Virus record (IMG/VR): IMGVR_UViG_2534682108_000005
Span: 1-17,046 of that record
Length of the DNA: 17,046 bases
Strand: one strand, 5' to 3'
Origin: a virus
Lineage: Duplodnaviria; Heunggongvirae; Uroviricota; Caudoviricetes
Under the pieces are notes generated by a model that was not told the DNA's origin, made no database searches, and saw only the letters and a list, made by a program, of their open reading frames with translations. Every line of letters begins with the position of its first letter. Position 1 is the first letter of the stretch. Both the position numbers and the translations under genes were made by a program. Shown here in pieces: positions 1,009 through 11,855 of the stretch.

Positions 1009-3480
1009 TTAAAAATCAGCCTGACTCGGGATCAGTTTTTGCCAGATAACTGAAACGTATTTTGCCTGGTAACGGGCGTCATCAAGTGCATTATGGCGCT
1101 CACCTTCGAATGGAATAGCCGTTCTGGCATCGAAGTCTATGGCTTTCCCCAGCTCAACGATTGTGCGTACATCGCGATCGTTGTAGTAACGCCACGGGCA
1201 GGGGATCCCCTGCCGTTCGTATGAACGGCGCAAAATCGTGTTGTCGAAGTTGGCTCCATTTCCCCAAACCTGAACAAAAAATTCACCGGAGTTTTCGTCG
1301 ATAAATTCCCGCAATTGTAACAGTGCATCATCTAACGGGATTTCATCGGTCATAATGGCAGATTGCGCTTCGCGTGATTGCTTAAGCCACCATTTAATGG
1401 TGTCCCGATCAATGACTCCGCCAGCAGTTTCCAGATTGATAGTCTTACTAAATTCCGGTCCCATATCTCCGGTTTGCGGATCGAAAAATATTGCACCTAT
1501 TGAGATGATCGGGGCATCAGGATTTTTTCCCATGGTTTCAAGGTCGATCATTAGATGGTCACACGTCCTGCTGGTGGATGTGATTTCGTGATGACCGTTC
1601 ATCTTAATTGGGTGATCTGCCGTCTCGCCAGTTTCATTATCGCTATTGTGATGCTGATTGCCGCCAGTGTTCTCCTTGTGTGGATGTTCAGTGCCTTCCA
1701 TTTCCTCCGGATCATCTTCCTGAACTTCAACCTGATACTCTTCATCGAATGTTTCCTGGTATGTTGCGTCGCCCATTACCGCGCCACAATCAGGGCAGTT
1801 ACCGCCGCCGGTCTGACCGCAGGCGGTGCAGACTTTTTCCACTTCCTGTTGCGCCACTGATTCAGGCTGTTTCGTTTCTGGCTCGTTTTGTAACGCATTT
1901 GGGCTGTTTTGTTCCGCTTTTTGGTAGTTCCGTTCCGATTCATGCTGGTTCTGGTTCACAGAATCGCGGGTCTGGATCCCCTTAACCCATTTCGGATCAT
2001 TCGGGTCACTAATCCCTTCAACAAATTCACCACGTGATGCAGCAAGCAACTTATCGGCGTCAGGCTGGATGATATTGGCTGCCTGCATAATTTTGTTTAC
2101 TTCGTCAGCGGTAACTTTTATCGGCTCTGGTTGTTCTGAATCTTCAGCGGTATCTACATTTTGCGGTAAGCCCGTGTATGTGCCATTTTTTCGGGCAAAA
2201 TATTCTTCTTTTGTGATTTCAGTGGCGCCAGCAGCCAGTGCCTTATCCAGACCAGAAAGTTTGTTTGCGCGACCGTATTTTTCTCCGTCCTTATCTGCGA
2301 AGAGGAAATAGAACGGCCCCTCACGCTCTACAGATGGTTCGACTTCCACTTTGCATTCGGTTTTTTCGTTGTCTGGAATTGCCGTTTCCACTGCATCAGT
2401 TTCTGGTACTGGCGACGAGAGAGTATCAGTTGCGCTCTGATTTGTTCCTTCATCTTCAAACACGCCCTTTGTAGTCAGGTATTCAGTAATGTATTTGTTC
2501 AGTGCCACAGGGTCTTTGTGAATGTCGATCGGACGTTCACGGACAAGGCCAAAAATAGTCTGGCGGTCGTAGCGAAGGGCATCAGGCTGTTTGCGCATTG
2601 ATGCCGAGATACGCTTCCAGTCTTCGCGGTCGTTGTCGATAACTTCATTTTTTGCCCAGCGATGGATGCTGCCGTCAATGTTTCCGGCATCCACATCACC
2701 AGGCCAGAGAGCGTAGGCCAGTTCGTCATCCAGTGTTTTCCATGTCTGCTTGTATTCGCGATGAATGGCAGCAATGACCGGGTTGATTTTTCCTGTTGAA
2801 TTTTCAGTGTGTTGTTGATTGGCTCTGGCGCGGGCGAGATCAACAACAGACGTGTATTTTCCGGCTTCCTTGCGTTCACCTTCGCGACGTTTTTTCCAGA
2901 TGCGCATCTCTGCCTGAATTTCGGGCCATTTGGCACCAGGCTTACATTTATGCTTAACCCACCCGATGGCATGCAGCTTAAGCTCCGGATACATAGCGTT
3001 AACTTCTGGCATTTTCATCAACGCTTCAACGATGTGGCCGTCGAATGTTGCCATGTCTTCCTGCAACAATTCCTGTGCGCTAATCACCATATCAACAGTG
3101 ATGTTTTCACATGTGTCGAACTTAACCATGACAGCGTTCTGTACTTCAGGGGCTAGGTTGTCAAAAGTGACGTTCATCGGATCGGATTCAGTCTCGACCG
3201 GGACAAAGGAAGCAGACGCCTCATCCCAGCGGTTTTCCTGCATATATTCAGCATCCCAGGAATCGAGGGCAGGGCGGGGTATACCGGGTTTATCCTCGCA
3301 AACAAGAAATTTATAAGCGCAGTCCTGAGCAGCCGGATAATGTTCCAGGAATTGCCAGTGAAATTTTGCGCGGGCGCGACGTTCATCACCGGCTTCAATG
3401 GCAGTGGCTACAGCGACGGCACCTTCTTCCTTTATTGCCTGTTCGTCCGGAATGGCGGCGCAAATAAAGACTTTACTCAT
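1009..3480 (-). CDS. Large phage exonuclease (823 aa) with a C-terminal DnaQ-like DEDDh 3'-5' exonuclease domain; the kind of protein usually annotated exodeoxyribonuclease VIII-like in lambdoid prophages
   Basis: Long uninterrupted ORF. The C-terminal ~180 aa carry exonuclease motifs (MIDLETMG, FDPQTGD, HNALDDARYQ). A CxxC...CxxC zinc-ribbon-like motif (CTACGQTGGGNCPDCG) sits in an acidic low-complexity middle region. Position between xis and the dicB-like operon fits a recombination module. Confidence 0.8.
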   Translation of the reverse strand: MSKVFICAAIPDEQAIKEEGAVAVATAIEAGDERRARAKFHWQFLEHYPAAQDCAYKFLVCEDKPGIPRPALDSWDAEYMQENRWDEASASFVPVETESDPMNVTFDNLAPEVQNAVMVKFDTCENITVDMVISAQELLQEDMATFDGHIVEALMKMPEVNAMYPELKLHAIGWVKHKCKPGAKWPEIQAEMRIWKKRREGERKEAGKYTSVVDLARARANQQHTENSTGKINPVIAAIHREYKQTWKTLDDELAYALWPGDVDAGNIDGSIHRWAKNEVIDNDREDWKRISASMRKQPDALRYDRQTIFGLVRERPIDIHKDPVALNKYITEYLTTKGVFEDEGTNQSATDTLSSPVPETDAVETAIPDNEKTECKVEVEPSVEREGPFYFLFADKDGEKYGRANKLSGLDKALAAGATEITKEEYFARKNGTYTGLPQNVDTAEDSEQPEPIKVTADEVNKIMQAANIIQPDADKLLAASRGEFVEGISDPNDPKWVKGIQTRDSVNQNQHESERNYQKAEQNSPNALQNEPETKQPESVAQQEVEKVCTACGQTGGGNCPDCGAVMGDATYQETFDEEYQVEVQEDDPEEMEGTEHPHKENTGGNQHHNSDNETGETADHPIKMNGHHEITSTSRTCDHLMIDLETMGKNPDAPIISIGAIFFDPQTGDMGPEFSKTINLETAGGVIDRDTIKWWLKQSREAQSAIMTDEIPLDDALLQLREFIDENSGEFFVQVWGNGANFDNTILRRSYERQGIPCPWRYYNDRDVRTIVELGKAIDFDARTAIPFEGERHNALDDARYQAKYVSVIWQKLIPSQADF

Positions 3481-3572: not shown

Positions 3573-3764
3573 TTAAAGACCTGCCGGGATTTCGTTATTA
3601 TCCTGGTGAATAACTTTATCGACCGGGTAACAGTTACCGGGAATTTTCTGTTCGGTTGCTGCAGTCACACACTCCTGCATTGTCCTGTGAACACTGACTG
3701 CAGTATCAACTGGCTCTCCGGAAACAAGAAAAACTGTCAGAACAAGTGCAAATGCTGTATTCAT
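3573..3764 (-). CDS. ydfD: Small hydrophobic N-terminus protein (63 aa), YdfD-like by size and synteny
   Basis: Start at MNTAFALVLTVFLVSG with an AAGGA Shine-Dalgarno 8 nt upstream. Its ATG overlaps the stop of the upstream gene (ATGA). Size and position after the dicB-like gene match Qin ydfD as I recall it; not verified by alignment. Confidence 0.5.
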   Translation of the reverse strand: MNTAFALVLTVFLVSGEPVDTAVSVHRTMQECVTAATEQKIPGNCYPVDKVIHQDNNEIPAGL

Positions 3765-3949
3765 TGCCAGCATCCTTTTTGTATCGGACGTAAACGGGCC
3801 AACATTGAAAGAATGCATATTTTATTTAATAGCTCCCGTTCGTGTTTTCTCTTGTTAATGGCATCTTCAGTAAATACAGGGTTACTGATAGTGACACCAA
3901 TTTCAAAACAACCTTCAGACGTATTAACGTTTGGTAATAACGTTTCCAT
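3761..3949 (-). CDS. dicB: DicB-like cell-division inhibitor (62 aa)
   Basis: 62-aa ORF (METLLPNVNTSEGCFEIG...) with a GAGGA SD 7 nt upstream, lying immediately downstream of the DicF sequence on the same strand and translationally coupled to the next gene. Size and synteny match Qin dicB. Confidence 0.55.
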   Translation of the reverse strand: METLLPNVNTSEGCFEIGVTISNPVFTEDAINKRKHERELLNKICILSMLARLRPIQKGCWQ

Positions 3950-4118: not shown

Positions 4119-4176
4119 AAAAAGGGCGGCAGAGCAGTCACGGAGTAAAACTGATACCGCCAAACGTCACCAGAAA
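4119..4176 (-). ncRNA. dicF: DicF small RNA (ftsZ-targeting antisense sRNA of Qin-type prophages) with its intrinsic terminator
   Basis: Minus-strand sequence UUUCUGGUGACGUUUGGCGGUAUCAGUUUUACUCCGUGACUGCUCUGCCGCCCUUUUU matches the DicF sequence as I recall it, including the 3' GC-rich stem and U-run. It sits between the ydfC-like and dicB-like genes as in Qin. Confidence 0.8.
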
Positions 4177-4517
4177 ATTGATAACAGAGGGCGTTGCAGC
4201 GGGATTGTCACTTAAGCGTATGGTCAACCTGACAACCCGGTGTCCTCAACGGGGGAAGGAATAACCCCGCCATACTTACCGCCGCGCCATTTCGCGGATT
4301 GCCACAACCGGAAGCGCACGGTCGACGAAAATTTAACGACAGGCTATCTATGAACCAGCTACCTCGCCGTGCGCTTTCGCGTTATGGTCTGACTTTTCAG
4401 GGAAATATCCTTTCAGTAAACTGTCAGTGCCGGATGCTCACCCGTGTCCGGCGCACGCACTCCACCTCACCCGTGGAGAACTCCTTAATTACCAACCTTA
4501 GCTTCGTTGGTTAGCTA

Positions 4518-5320: not shown

Positions 5321-5611
5321 TTAACAGGTTTTGTTTGGATACTGTCTTCGTGAGTGAACTACATTTACGATCTCGATGTTAGATGCTGTTACTCGGTAAA
5401 GTATTATATAGTTAGGATGAGTCACTATCTCACGAAGACTTGGAACTCTTTCGCTCGGTGGGTACAGATAAGGGTGTTCAGTAAGTGACAAAACTGATGT
5501 TTCAATGCGTATTTTTAGTCTACGTGCAGCGGGAGGGTTTTCCTTAGCAATATAGGCTACGATCTGACGTAAATCATCACGTGCAGAAGGTAGCCATAAA
5601 ATGGGCAGCAT
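5321..5611 (-). CDS. parE: ParE/RelE-superfamily toxin (96 aa) of a type II toxin-antitoxin module
   Basis: Size, basic C-terminus and overall pattern (...HPNYIILYRVTASNIEIVNVVHSRRQYP) resemble ParE toxins. Its start overlaps the stop of the upstream small gene by 1 nt, the typical antitoxin-toxin arrangement. Confidence 0.7.
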   Translation of the reverse strand: MLPILWLPSARDDLRQIVAYIAKENPPAARRLKIRIETSVLSLTEHPYLYPPSERVPSLREIVTHPNYIILYRVTASNIEIVNVVHSRRQYPNKTC

Positions 5612-5802
5612 TACTCACTCCTGTTCGTTGCAGCTAATTGAGCAATAAGGTTTTCCATTTCAGCCATTACTTCGTCATGTGGAATTGCAGGACGGGGATC
5701 TGAGAGGCTTGCTGCCACTTTGGCTCGCAACCATTCGTTATAGCTGTTTTCTTGTTCGACTGTTTCAAATTCAGAAATTATCGGGGAAAGGGCTGTACTC
5801 AT
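5611..5802 (-). CDS. Antitoxin (63 aa) cognate to the ParE-like toxin; PaaA-like
   Basis: Small acidic protein (MSTALSPIISEFETVEQENSYNEWLRAKVAASLSDPRP...) directly upstream of and coupled to the toxin gene. It resembles, from memory, PaaA-type antitoxins of the three-component paaR-paaA-parE systems of E. coli O157 prophages. Confidence 0.6.
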   Translation of the reverse strand: MSTALSPIISEFETVEQENSYNEWLRAKVAASLSDPRPAIPHDEVMAEMENLIAQLAATNRSE

Positions 5803-11121: not shown

Positions 11122-11699
11122 AAAGGTACATCGTTACTGTTTTACTTGTCAATACATTTGATATTGATTCTCGTTCGCATCGTTTGTTCAGGGATTTGAA
11201 GACAGATAACTGCTATGTCAATGAACCAACCCACAGTCCAACGTACTTCAGCAAAATATGGCGTCGGGATATAGCACCCTGATATTCACCACGGCAAACA
11301 CACGCCGAGAGTGTTTTTTTATCGTCGTATGTACGTGCACATCTGAATAATGGCAGGCGAATGTGATAGCCGAAAAGCTCACCGTGCGGTGATCCGGTAG
11401 TTTCACCCTGTACGTCTCATAACCCGATGATTGAGACCTTAAGCAAAACAATAACAAGGGAGCGTCATTATGACCACTCAAACTGATTTCATATTGGCGA
11501 TGTAATGGGAAGTTAAGTAGAATGGCAGCGGGTGCTTGAGGCTATCTGTCTCAGGCATGAACACCAAAAGGCAGATAGAGAAAAGCCCCAGTTAACATTG
11601 CGCGTCCGGCAAGACGCTTAACATTAATCTGAGGCCATATCTATGCTCTACACACGTAGGTTAGCCTCTTACGTGCCGAAAGGCAAGGAGAAGCAGGCT

Positions 11700-11855
11700 A
11701 TGAAGCAGCAAAAGGCGATGCTAATCGCCCTGATCGTCATCTGTTTAACCGTCATTGTGACGGCACTGGTAACGAGGAAAGACCTCTGCGAGGTATGAAT
11801 CCGAACCGGCCAGACGGAGGTCGCTGTCTTCACAGTCTACGAACCTGAGGAGTAA
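11700..11855 (+). pseudogene. hokD: hok/gef-family type I toxin gene (HokD/RelF-like) interrupted by an in-frame TGA at codon 33
   Basis: Translation MKQQKAMLIALIVICLTVIVTALVTRKDLCEV, then TGA at 11796-11798, then in frame IRTGQTEVAVFTVYEPEE and TAA at 11853-11855. This matches HokD as I recall it, with the stop where Arg is expected. AGGAG SD 9 nt upstream. Structured leader (CTATCTG...CAGATAG) upstream and a 3' stem-loop at 11862-11884. Confidence 0.7.

Follow-up and report, generated by a model that had tools for sequence, protein, structure and literature searches.

RecE (exonuclease VIII) of the Rac prophage in E. coli K-12 is encoded in a lambdoid early-left operon and ends in a PD-(D/E)XK 5′–3′ double-stranded DNA exonuclease, with recT following. 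The role of its N-terminal region, about 600 residues long, is poorly understood; truncated RecE supports recombineering, yet linear-linear recombination works better with the full-length protein (PMC11611040). Among lambdoid phages, Tritos has been described as the prototype of a nuclease-only Rec module, a class without annealase, SSB or anti-RecBCD functions and with abundant Chi sites; the sections of that paper drawn on here leave the architecture of the protein, the swap point and the scaffold undissected (Zheng et al., Genome Res 2025, PMC12315714). A further set of relatives comprises standalone DEDDh exonucleases of 180–230 aa, namely epsilon34 gp34, PhiR40_1 (190 aa), T4 DexA, E. coli EcD and Rv2179c of M. 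tuberculosis. T4 DexA acts on DNA and has a part in intron homing; EcD is reported to break down 5hmC-DNA and to shield E. coli against T4, and among bacteria DexA homologues are found most often in Escherichia (PMC12153337). K-12 itself carries, in its Qin prophage, the pseudogene ydfE (b1577), which IS2E interrupts after codon 256, with loss of the remaining scaffold and the nuclease. A literature search pairing ydfE with exonuclease returned no papers.

The gene and its surroundings

The gene analysed here lies on the minus strand of a 17,046-nucleotide stretch of viral DNA (the window) at positions 1009..3480, and all features below are on that strand unless stated otherwise. Its frame is unbroken from the ATG at 3480 to the stop at 1011–1009, encodes 823 aa, and is 100% identical to the RefSeq CDS “exonuclease” WP_000048451.1 of E. 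coli O157:H16. Internal starts at M626 or M644, which would yield a free DEDDh domain, were considered and set aside; neither is preceded by a convincing Shine-Dalgarno sequence. Upstream in the same leftward operon are annotated the DicF sRNA (4124–4175, Rfam), dicB (3761–3949, Pfam) and ydfD (3573–3764, Pfam); the K-12 annotation calls YdfD a lysis protein. Downstream, immediately after the DEDDh tail, come an excisionase gene (678–947, a Pfam match to the Exc family) and an N-terminal integrase fragment cut by an IS66-family element (77–709). The minus strand of the interval that separates ydfD from the exonuclease gene contains no promoter-like site, and the gene is therefore probably co-transcribed with dicB–ydfD.

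This arrangement is closely matched in the described systems. The order DicF–dicB–ydfD–exonuclease–xis–int is identical in Tritos, whose “exonuclease VIII” shares 95% identity over 822 aa with the protein studied here; there is essentially no difference between the two. K-12 ydfE has the same dicB–ydfD genes upstream, and over the first 256 aa it matches our protein at 96% identity. RecE occupies the same place in its early-left operon, and the two proteins have in common a conserved peptide, a CxxC-x7-CxxC knuckle and an acidic linker; the difference is in what comes after, since RecE has the PD-(D/E)XK tail and then recT, whereas the 823-aa protein has a DEDDh 3′–5′ tail and no recT. As judged from these homologies, the gene is the intact form of the Qin pseudogene ydfE and joins a RecE-family scaffold to a DEDDh exonuclease.

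The sequence-only reading had noted that no RecT/Bet-like gene stands alongside the exonuclease gene, and this holds well beyond the window: RecT, Bet and Erf genes are absent from the window, from the rest of the prophage and from the related loci examined. A tblastn search with RecT, Erf, Bet, the Rad52-like tail described below, Exo, Gam, SSB and Abc2 gave no match in 988 kb from 80 loci (related viral contigs, searched to a distance of about 10 kb from the gene), in the prophage itself or in phage HannyBb, and the control, locus L004, was detected. Annotations of the prophage and of HannyBb agree in containing no annealase and no RecBCD inhibitor, a Pfam search gave no annealase family for six HannyBb ORFs, of which four lie in the early-left operon, and recT is also missing from the early-left region of Tritos. 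Chi sites in the prophage are rich and skewed (9 versus 2, in 35 kb).

The DEDDh domain and the RecE-type scaffold

Residues 641–823 (1012..1560) form a DEDDh 3′–5′ exonuclease domain of the DnaQ/T4 DexA/Rv2179c-like kind. Pfam family PF16473 (Rv2179c-like) matches aa 642–813 at E 3.8e-67, with 225.8 bits against a gathering score of 27, and covers profile positions 2–177 of 177. In the local copy of Pfam, the only other match in the protein is a weak one to PF00929 (RNase_T) over the same stretch. All five catalytic residues of motifs ExoI–III are present, as D646 and E648 (DLET), D746 (NFD), and H796 and D801 (HNALDD). The early claim that recognisable DEDDh motifs are limited to the last ~180 aa was accurate. 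The T4 DexA structure 8kel was matched at E 3e-6, and the standalone relatives named above have the same catalytic domain and motifs but no N-terminal scaffold. The two lambdoid examples, epsilon34 gp34 and PhiR40_1, are 56–59% identical to the domain and conserve all five residues. We infer 3′–5′ polarity and a preference for DNA from the family, which Pfam names after an exoribonuclease. The RecE PD-(D/E)XK nuclease (PF12684/DUF3799) has no Pfam match in the 823-aa protein, and a phmmer search with the RecE nuclease domain (RecE 589–866) matches the relative P0030 and not P0001, a cluster representative that is 95% identical to our protein.

Upstream of this domain, aa 1–622 are by homology the N-terminal scaffold of the RecE family. 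A BLASTP comparison with K-12 RecE aligns aa 262–622 with RecE 278–588 at E 8e-60 and stops at RecE residue 588; near-identity extends over the last ~150 residues of the alignment, aa 474–622 against RecE 453–588. The NCBIfam equivalog for exoVIII (NF007259) scores 281 bits against a cut-off of 1269, with a good match over aa 453–623 only. Precomputed Pfam matches to YdfE_N (PF27430) and YdfE_C (PF27432) are recorded for P0001 and for relatives; the two family names come from K-12 YdfE. The head is also remotely homologous to the RecE head, PF06630, with an hhalign probability of 99.2%. The first ~640 residues had at the outset been taken as uncharacterised, which does not stand as regards family, and stands as regards function, which has not been assigned to this region even in RecE (PMC11611040).

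The scaffold is predicted to comprise three small folded units, together with a conserved peptide and a zinc knuckle set among disordered linkers that are Gln-rich or acidic. The head domain of YdfE_N type (aa 1–205, 2866..3480) is modelled by AF2 as an alpha/beta start followed by a helical bundle (pLDDT ~90; dN/dS 0.086), and fold searches with it gave no informative match. A helical domain common to RecE (aa 245–340, 2461..2748; RecE aa ~278–360) follows, with pLDDT ~88 and dN/dS 0.116; the BLASTP alignment with RecE starts within it, at aa 262. The third unit is a mini-domain of two beta-hairpins and helices (aa 386–432, 2185..2325; pLDDT ~85), which has the lowest dN/dS among the segments, 0.043, and in a 48-sequence alignment has invariant columns at R386, G388, P389, F390, Y391, G403, R404, N406 and K407.

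Beyond the mini-domain the chain is mostly predicted to be disordered. The near-identical match to RecE starts at the peptide LLAASRGEFVEGISDPNDPKWVKG (aa 474–501, 1978..2061; K-12 RecE aa 453–480), whose flanking stretch has low pLDDT, in part below 50, and variants of which recur among distant relatives. We regard this peptide as a candidate interaction motif in an otherwise disordered stretch. It is followed by a Gln/Asn/Glu-rich linker (aa 502–547, 1840..1977) with pLDDT below 50 over aa 497–547; the composition extends over aa 481–560, and dN/dS is 0.34 over aa 433–547. A putative zinc knuckle or ribbon comes next (aa 548–568, 1777..1839; dN/dS 0.108). Because the motif CTACGQTGGGNCPDCG spans aa 551–566, its cysteines are C551, C554, C562 and C565, spaced CxxC-x7-CxxC, and all four are kept in K-12 RecE. 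The AF2 model gives only short strands here, at pLDDT 50–55; the knuckle may bind metal. The last segment shared with RecE, up to RecE residue 588, is an acidic linker (aa 569–622, 1615..1776; pLDDT ~28), with 14 Asp/Glu and no Lys/Arg in aa 561–600. The zinc-ribbon and acidic tract that the sequence-only reading described in this protein are both borne out, the former as a zinc-ribbon-like motif at aa 551–565. It had also named the opposite case, a canonical RecE architecture with a known partner elsewhere in the prophage; what we find is an architecture of RecE type with a non-canonical nuclease, and no partner is encoded in the prophage.

Tail exchange and distribution

Homology at the DNA level, whether to locus L004 or to K-12 recE, breaks off at nt 1614, that is, at codon 622, the equivalent of RecE residue 588. 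Between the scaffold and the DEDDh domain lies a junction-specific linker, HPIKMNGHHEITSTSRTC (aa 623–640, 1561..1614), which has no counterpart in RecE-type genes, and the aligned standalone homologues epsilon34 gp34 and PhiR40_1 start at the position of aa 640. Reading of the linker and a pattern count revealed a Chi site, GCTGGTGG, on the plus strand at 1570..1577, 37 nt from the homology breakpoint, and HannyBb has a Chi site ~45 nt from the corresponding junction. Involvement of Chi in the domain swap is speculation on our part.

At the same breakpoint, sister prophages carry the RecE PD-(D/E)XK nuclease tail together with recT, ralR and rcbA. For example, P0030 and P0039 (900 aa) have scaffolds 91–93% identical to ours and a PF12684 tail; the P0039 locus has dicB–ydfD upstream as here, and RecT–Lar–DUF1187–xis–int downstream. 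Each type of head occurs with each type of nuclease, giving four combinations; P0130, for one, joins a RecE head to a DEDDh tail without recT. By these comparisons the gene is shown to be a domain-swapped paralogue of RecE, the swap being natural and prophage-borne.

More distant relatives extend this pattern. Proteins of ~780 aa, named “exodeoxyribonuclease VIII” in Enterobacter, Klebsiella and Citrobacter prophages, have the YdfE_N and YdfE_C scaffold (31–42% identical) and retain the invariant GPFY...GRANK mini-domain. They differ from our protein in having, by phmmer, no zinc knuckle, and in that their tail is a Rad52-fold domain with a long helical region and no nuclease. This fold was revealed by structure comparison alone, and a profile search of the tail against PDB sequences gave no match. 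In P0354, the sole member of this group whose context was looked up, a Sipho_Gp157 gene comes next downstream. These proteins probably correspond to the “RecE-2” proteins described in PMC12315714. The scaffold thus appears to accept different recombination enzymes, a Rad52-like annealase included.

The gene is very common in E. coli, where it had been catalogued before this analysis. Of 5426 complete E. coli genomes, 4069 (75%) contain the DEDDh DNA segment, with up to 7 copies per genome, and the recE-nuclease and recT cassette is found in 32% of complete genomes of the species; the DEDDh version is by far the commonest in the species. The ORF is intact in all 81 copies examined, and dN/dS indicates purifying selection on every folded unit: values are 0.04–0.12 across the predicted folded units, zinc knuckle included, 0.25 for the DEDDh domain, and 0.34–2.3 in the linkers. 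Because the copies are all intact and the folded units have low dN/dS, the feature is more than chance.

Possible roles of the protein

Our best explanation, whose chances we put at about even, is that a RecE-type scaffold delivers a DNA 3′-end exonuclease that works together with host recombination. The gene would probably be transcribed with dicB–ydfD from the early-left operon after derepression, and the C-terminal domain would remove nucleotides at DNA 3′ ends. The action of T4 DexA on DNA and the place of epsilon34 gp34 in a recombination module speak for such a role of the nuclease. The scaffold would position the enzyme where the RecE nuclease or the Rad52-like annealase goes, for example at DNA ends or with a host partner. 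Given that the phage has no annealase and no RecBCD inhibitor and is rich in Chi sites, the role is probably the trimming or blunting of 3′-tailed phage DNA ends for host RecBCD–Chi–RecA recombination and not service in a single-strand-annealing pathway of the phage. We infer the end-blunting step. Targeting by the scaffold is purely an argument from modularity, because the fold searches were null and the RecE region has no assigned function. The suggestion of the sequence-only reading that the protein may act with host factors is still the best one. A pro-recombination role is not obvious, however, as a passage in PMC12315714 states that 3′–5′ exonucleases usually inhibit homologous recombination, and the title of PMC13048471 reports improved RecET-mediated DNA assembly in the presence of an xonA (Exo I) mutation. 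The reported anti-phage defence by an E. coli DexA homologue also counts against a role in recombination.

That report raises the possibility of a superinfection exonuclease, in which the DEDDh domain destroys incoming phage DNA, such as that of cytosine-modified T-even phages, in the manner of EcD (“HREX”). The EcD precedent (PMC12153337) favours it, as do the DexA-family domain and the extreme frequency of the gene in prophages, with several copies in one genome. Of the two DexA residues reported to recognise 5hmC, W152 falls, by our reading of the alignment, opposite the aromatic Y766, where the standalone lambdoid homologues have Trp. For the other, D169, no exact equivalent could be placed; acidic residues occur close to where it is expected. 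EcD is nevertheless a different protein, since its primers encode MIDTET...TIPETY and the corresponding stretches here read LMIDLET...PSQADF. A scan of the viral and genome contigs with the 3′ primer of EcD (HAK9828821.1) gave one chance match each, without a DEDDh ORF. DexA D90, which is Ala in EcD, aligns with D718, hence the tetramer residue is kept. A repressed early-left operon and the lack of an own promoter-like site also make a poor arrangement for defence of a lysogen. PADLOC v2 gives no system-specific match, only a generic CRISPR-associated DEDDh model at E 8e-6, and defence leaves unexplained both the RecE scaffold and the exact swap with a recombination nuclease. We therefore consider this role unlikely.

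Scavenging of host DNA is one of the two roles reported for T4 DexA (PMC12153337). Degradation of nicked or broken DNA of the host or a competitor from its 3′ ends during lytic growth, as a nucleotide supply, would fit this kinship and the probable expression early after induction with YdfD and the division inhibitor DicB. It gives no reason for a conserved 622-aa scaffold common to RecE and an annealase, and the epsilon34 homologue sits in a recombination module: gp34 (56% identical) is encoded between the SSB and Abc2 genes and adjoins Erf. Lambdoid phages are not known to degrade the host chromosome, and we hold this explanation to be improbable. We give marginally less credence to a very improbable 3′ exoribonuclease like the founding member Rv2179c, with transcripts of the phage or the host as possible substrates, such as the DicF precursor of the same operon. 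The best Pfam family is named “3′-5′ exoribonuclease Rv2179c-like”, NCBI gives many copies the name “3′-5′ exoribonuclease”, and DicF is indeed encoded in the operon; but T4 DexA, the nearest characterised phage relative, is a DNase, the domain takes the place of a DNA exonuclease, the scaffold concerned is also found joined to an annealase, and the close standalone homologue lies among the Erf, SSB and Abc2 genes. Finally, the gene could be a functionless relic of illegitimate deletion or fusion, spread only by prophage hitch-hiking. Many host prophages are defective, the integrase gene here is cut by an IS, and the K-12 gene is cut by IS2. We reject this explanation, which is close to refuted, on account of the 81 intact copies and dN/dS of 0.04–0.25 in all folded units; the catalytic residues are also intact, and two sequenced phages, HannyBb and Tritos, carry the gene, as do 75% of E. 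coli genomes.

Even if the protein is an ordinary accessory nuclease, there is a gain for annotation, as the name “exonuclease VIII” is wrong for it and “exoribonuclease” is not demonstrably right. Returning to a scaffold that works with host recombination, we can offer, as a tentative and still doubtful extension, that the RecE/YdfE N-terminal region is an autonomous, enzyme-independent delivery module into which lambdoid prophages would plug a PD-(D/E)XK nuclease with RecT, a DEDDh nuclease or a Rad52-type annealase. The DEDDh version would be the phage’s end-blunting factor, feeding Chi-rich DNA to host RecBCD without competing with it.

For the family, the comparisons show that the RecE N-terminal region is used in nature as a portable scaffold: here it is joined, at the same linker, to a nuclease whose predicted polarity is the reverse of that of RecE, and elsewhere among the relatives to a Rad52-like annealase. 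The natural tail swap therefore offers a direct experimental handle on the RecE N-terminal region. For E. coli, about 75% of whose complete genomes carry the DEDDh segment, often in several copies, a DNA-end activity of this kind could have consequences for how prophages are induced and recombine with one another, and for recombineering in wild strains.

A RecE-type front part joined to a DEDDh domain

The exonuclease gene (1009–3480, minus strand) is an intact open reading frame (ORF) running from an ATG at 3480 to a stop at 1011–1009, and encodes 823 aa. A lambdoid prophage adjoining potC in E. coli O157:H16 strain Res13-Lact-PEA12-26 equals the window at 100% identity, and the ORF is annotated there as "exonuclease". 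The sequence-only reading had reported this ORF with a cysteine motif, an acidic tract, and DEDDh motifs in the C-terminal part, all of which were borne out. By sequence reading, a putative zinc-knuckle motif (C551-x2-C554-x7-C562-x2-C565) occupies aa 551–566, aa 561–600 contain 14 Asp/Glu and zero Lys/Arg, and aa 481–560 are Gln/Asn/Glu-rich. PF16473 (Rv2179c-like, DEDDh) was the sole strong match in a local Pfam copy (aa 642–813, E 3.8e-67), with RNase_T matching weakly over the same stretch, and all five catalytic residues (D646, E648, D746, H796, D801) are kept. T4 DexA (8kel, E 3e-6) is the only sequence-level relative with a solved structure.

The first ~640 residues had been called uncharacterised, a description that has to be replaced, as BLASTP, hhalign, and NCBIfam identify aa 1–622 (hereafter the scaffold) as a RecE N-terminal region. 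K-12 RecE 278–588 aligns with aa 262–622 (BLASTP, E 8e-60), the last ~150 aligned residues being nearly identical, and both proteins have the peptide LLAASRGEFV(E/D)GISDPNDPKWVKG, the four cysteines, and the acidic tract. The NCBIfam exonuclease VIII model matches aa 453–623, at a score far under the family cut-off. Over aa 1–256 the protein is 96% identical to ydfE, a pseudogene of K-12 Qin truncated by IS2E; the window gene thus represents YdfE in its intact form. YdfE_N (PF27430) and YdfE_C (PF27432), from a newer Pfam release, are precomputed matches on a 95%-identical cluster representative. Between the YdfE head and the RecE head (PF06630), profile-profile comparison detects remote homology (hhalign 99.2%, E 1e-19, 276 columns). 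According to a review of recombineering enzymes, the function of the RecE N-terminal domain is unknown; the nuclease domain alone is a genetic substitute, yet full-length RecE is superior in linear-linear recombination (PMC11611040).

Cassette exchange at RecE residue 588

Searches with aa 1–640 returned mostly 823–830-aa E. coli proteins with the window architecture (one such cluster has 23,183 members), and also 900-aa proteins whose scaffold is 91–93% identical and whose C-terminus is PF12684, the RecE PD-(D/E)XK nuclease. One of the latter, P0039, lies in a sister prophage (locus L004) with dicB-ydfD upstream, as in the window, and is followed by RecT, Lar/RalR, DUF1187, xis, and int; by annotation, xis and int are directly downstream of the window gene. 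The two prophages are 90.7% identical in DNA from nt 4200 to nt 1614 and unrelated past that point. Homology to K-12 recE DNA ends at nt 1614 too, which is codon 622 of the exonuclease and RecE residue 588. The standalone DEDDh homologues epsilon34 gp34 (182 aa) and PhiR40_1 (190 aa), 56–59% identical to the DEDDh domain, start at the position matching aa 640, and aa 623–640 therefore form a junction-specific linker. A Chi site lies at 1570–1577 (plus strand), within this 18-codon linker and 37 nt from the end of RecE-type homology, and phage HannyBb has a Chi site near the corresponding junction.

Only 252 scaffold relatives turned up when 1.84 billion representative proteins were searched exhaustively, and modules were placed on them by phmmer. 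The relatives have two head types (YdfE_N and RecE head), a common middle (helical domain, mini-domain, and conserved peptide), and three tail types; the zinc knuckle and acidic linker were both detected only in some nuclease-tailed relatives. All four head-by-nuclease combinations occur, including a RecE head with a DEDDh tail (P0130) at a locus ordered kilR-ydaE-gene-xis-int, which has no recT. The third tail is found in ~780-aa proteins of Enterobacter, Klebsiella, Citrobacter, and Kosakonia, annotated "exodeoxyribonuclease VIII" yet without a nuclease domain; it bears a KKSLTDAIKKALSLLGF motif, and Pfam Rad52_Rad22 matches it slightly under threshold (E 0.004). One scaffold type is thus found carrying a 5'-3' exonuclease, a predicted 3'-5' exonuclease, or a predicted annealase. 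An 810-aa E. coli entry (P0094) combines YdfE_N, YdfE_C, Rv2179c-like, and Phage_integrase matches, probably because the exonuclease and the integrase downstream were fused in assembly or annotation.

Folding, selection, and prevalence

AlphaFold2, fed a 48-sequence alignment, predicted three confident folded units in the scaffold with disordered linkers between them: aa 1–205 (alpha/beta start, then a helical bundle; pLDDT about 90), aa 245–340 (helical; about 88), and aa 386–432 (two hairpins plus helices, with an invariant RxGPFY...GRxNK signature; about 85). Model confidence was low for the zinc knuckle, and aa 569–640 were disordered. Fold searches found nothing informative for the scaffold. 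Over 70 distinct alleles, dN/dS was 0.086, 0.116, and 0.043 for the three units, respectively, 0.108 for the zinc knuckle, 0.25 for the little-diverged DEDDh domain, and 0.34–2.3 for the linkers, a pattern of purifying selection on the folded units that agrees with the predicted division into units and linkers. All 81 exonuclease ORFs were intact.

Of the complete E. coli genomes scanned (5426), 4069 contain the DEDDh segment (8098 places, at most 7 per genome) and 1750 a recE-nuclease plus recT segment. In these genomes the DEDDh segment (1009–1614) is far less diverged than the scaffold (1615–3480): at ≥99% identity, the former matched 2047 records and the latter 4. This suggests either a recent sweep or a tail cassette that prophages often exchange.

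Prophage context and proposed role

The earlier observation that no RecT/Bet-like gene accompanies the exonuclease held for the whole prophage, whose annotation contains no annealase. In addition, tblastn with RecT, Erf, lambda Bet, Exo, and Gam, the Rad52-like tail, SSB, Abc2, and Gp157 found none in 80 IMG/VR loci (988 kb, flanks up to 10 kb), this prophage, HannyBb, or locus L012, while the control locus L004 was picked up. HannyBb and Tritos, deposited as complete phage genomes, both have the order dicB-ydfD-exonuclease-xis-int, and the Tritos protein is 95% identical to the window exonuclease across 822 residues. Zheng et al. (PMC12315714) present Tritos as the prototype of a class with a nuclease, no annealase, SSB, or anti-RecBCD function, and abundant Chi; they also mention DnaQ-like nucleases in lambdoid Rec modules, as well as sporadic ones near int. 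Chi sites in the 35-kb prophage (11884–47046 of its locus L001, where the window is 15001–32046) are split 9 to 2 between the strands; their density exceeds the E. coli average quoted in that paper, and the strong skew resembles that of lambdoid phages without anti-RecBCD function. The protein family is already catalogued, through its RefSeq name, the newer Pfam families on the scaffold, and the Tritos class, and the window exonuclease is nothing categorically new. In the literature searched, we found no description of the exact swap at RecE-588, of heads and tails assorting freely, or of a Rad52-type third tail.

Within the leftward operon, DicF sRNA (4124–4175, minus strand; Rfam 76.7 bits) precedes dicB, ydfD, and the exonuclease gene; the RefSeq record used does not annotate it. 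A RelE/RelB toxin-antitoxin pair (5321–5802, minus strand) sits in the early-left region between a repressor-like gene and ydfA, unlike K-12 Qin, where relBE is elsewhere in the prophage. On the plus strand are a hok/sok-type locus (11530–11705, 11700–11798; sok RNA 116 bits, annotated Hok/Gef CDS) and, downstream of a DNA methyltransferase gene, three phage-borne tRNA genes (15956–16202; annotated Ile, Arg, Arg) followed by an STnc100 sRNA-family match (16315–16512; 134.6 bits). By annotation, ISCro1, an element of the IS66 family, interrupts the integrase (1–709; 11884–15709 of L001), which probably leaves this prophage copy unable to excise.

The exonuclease gene lacks its own promoter-like site and would therefore probably be transcribed together with dicB and ydfD upon derepression; its C-terminal domain would digest DNA from 3' ends. 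We favor a DNA substrate because DexA is a DNase, with a part in intron homing (PMC12153337), because the epsilon34 homologue gene is flanked by SSB and Abc2 genes and adjoins Erf, and because the DEDDh domain stands in for a DNA exonuclease on a scaffold that elsewhere bears a predicted annealase. An RNase, as the Pfam family name hints, has only a slight chance of being the right reading, and T4-like nucleotide scavenging one that is small but a little better. We consider an anti-phage enzyme of the EcD/HREX kind (an E. coli DexA homologue; PMC12153337) unlikely: EcD is a distinct protein, the operon context fits such a role poorly, and PADLOC gave the exonuclease a generic match only, and the residue pattern read from an alignment with T4 DexA is mixed. 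That the gene is a relic is highly improbable, being contradicted by the selection data.

For the preferred DNA 3'-exonuclease, a role in trimming 3' tails is in tension with the general rule, stated in PMC12315714, that 3' exonucleases inhibit homologous recombination. Speculatively, because the phage is Chi-rich and lacks an annealase and Gam, such trimming might ready phage DNA ends for recombination by the host RecBCD-RecA pathway.
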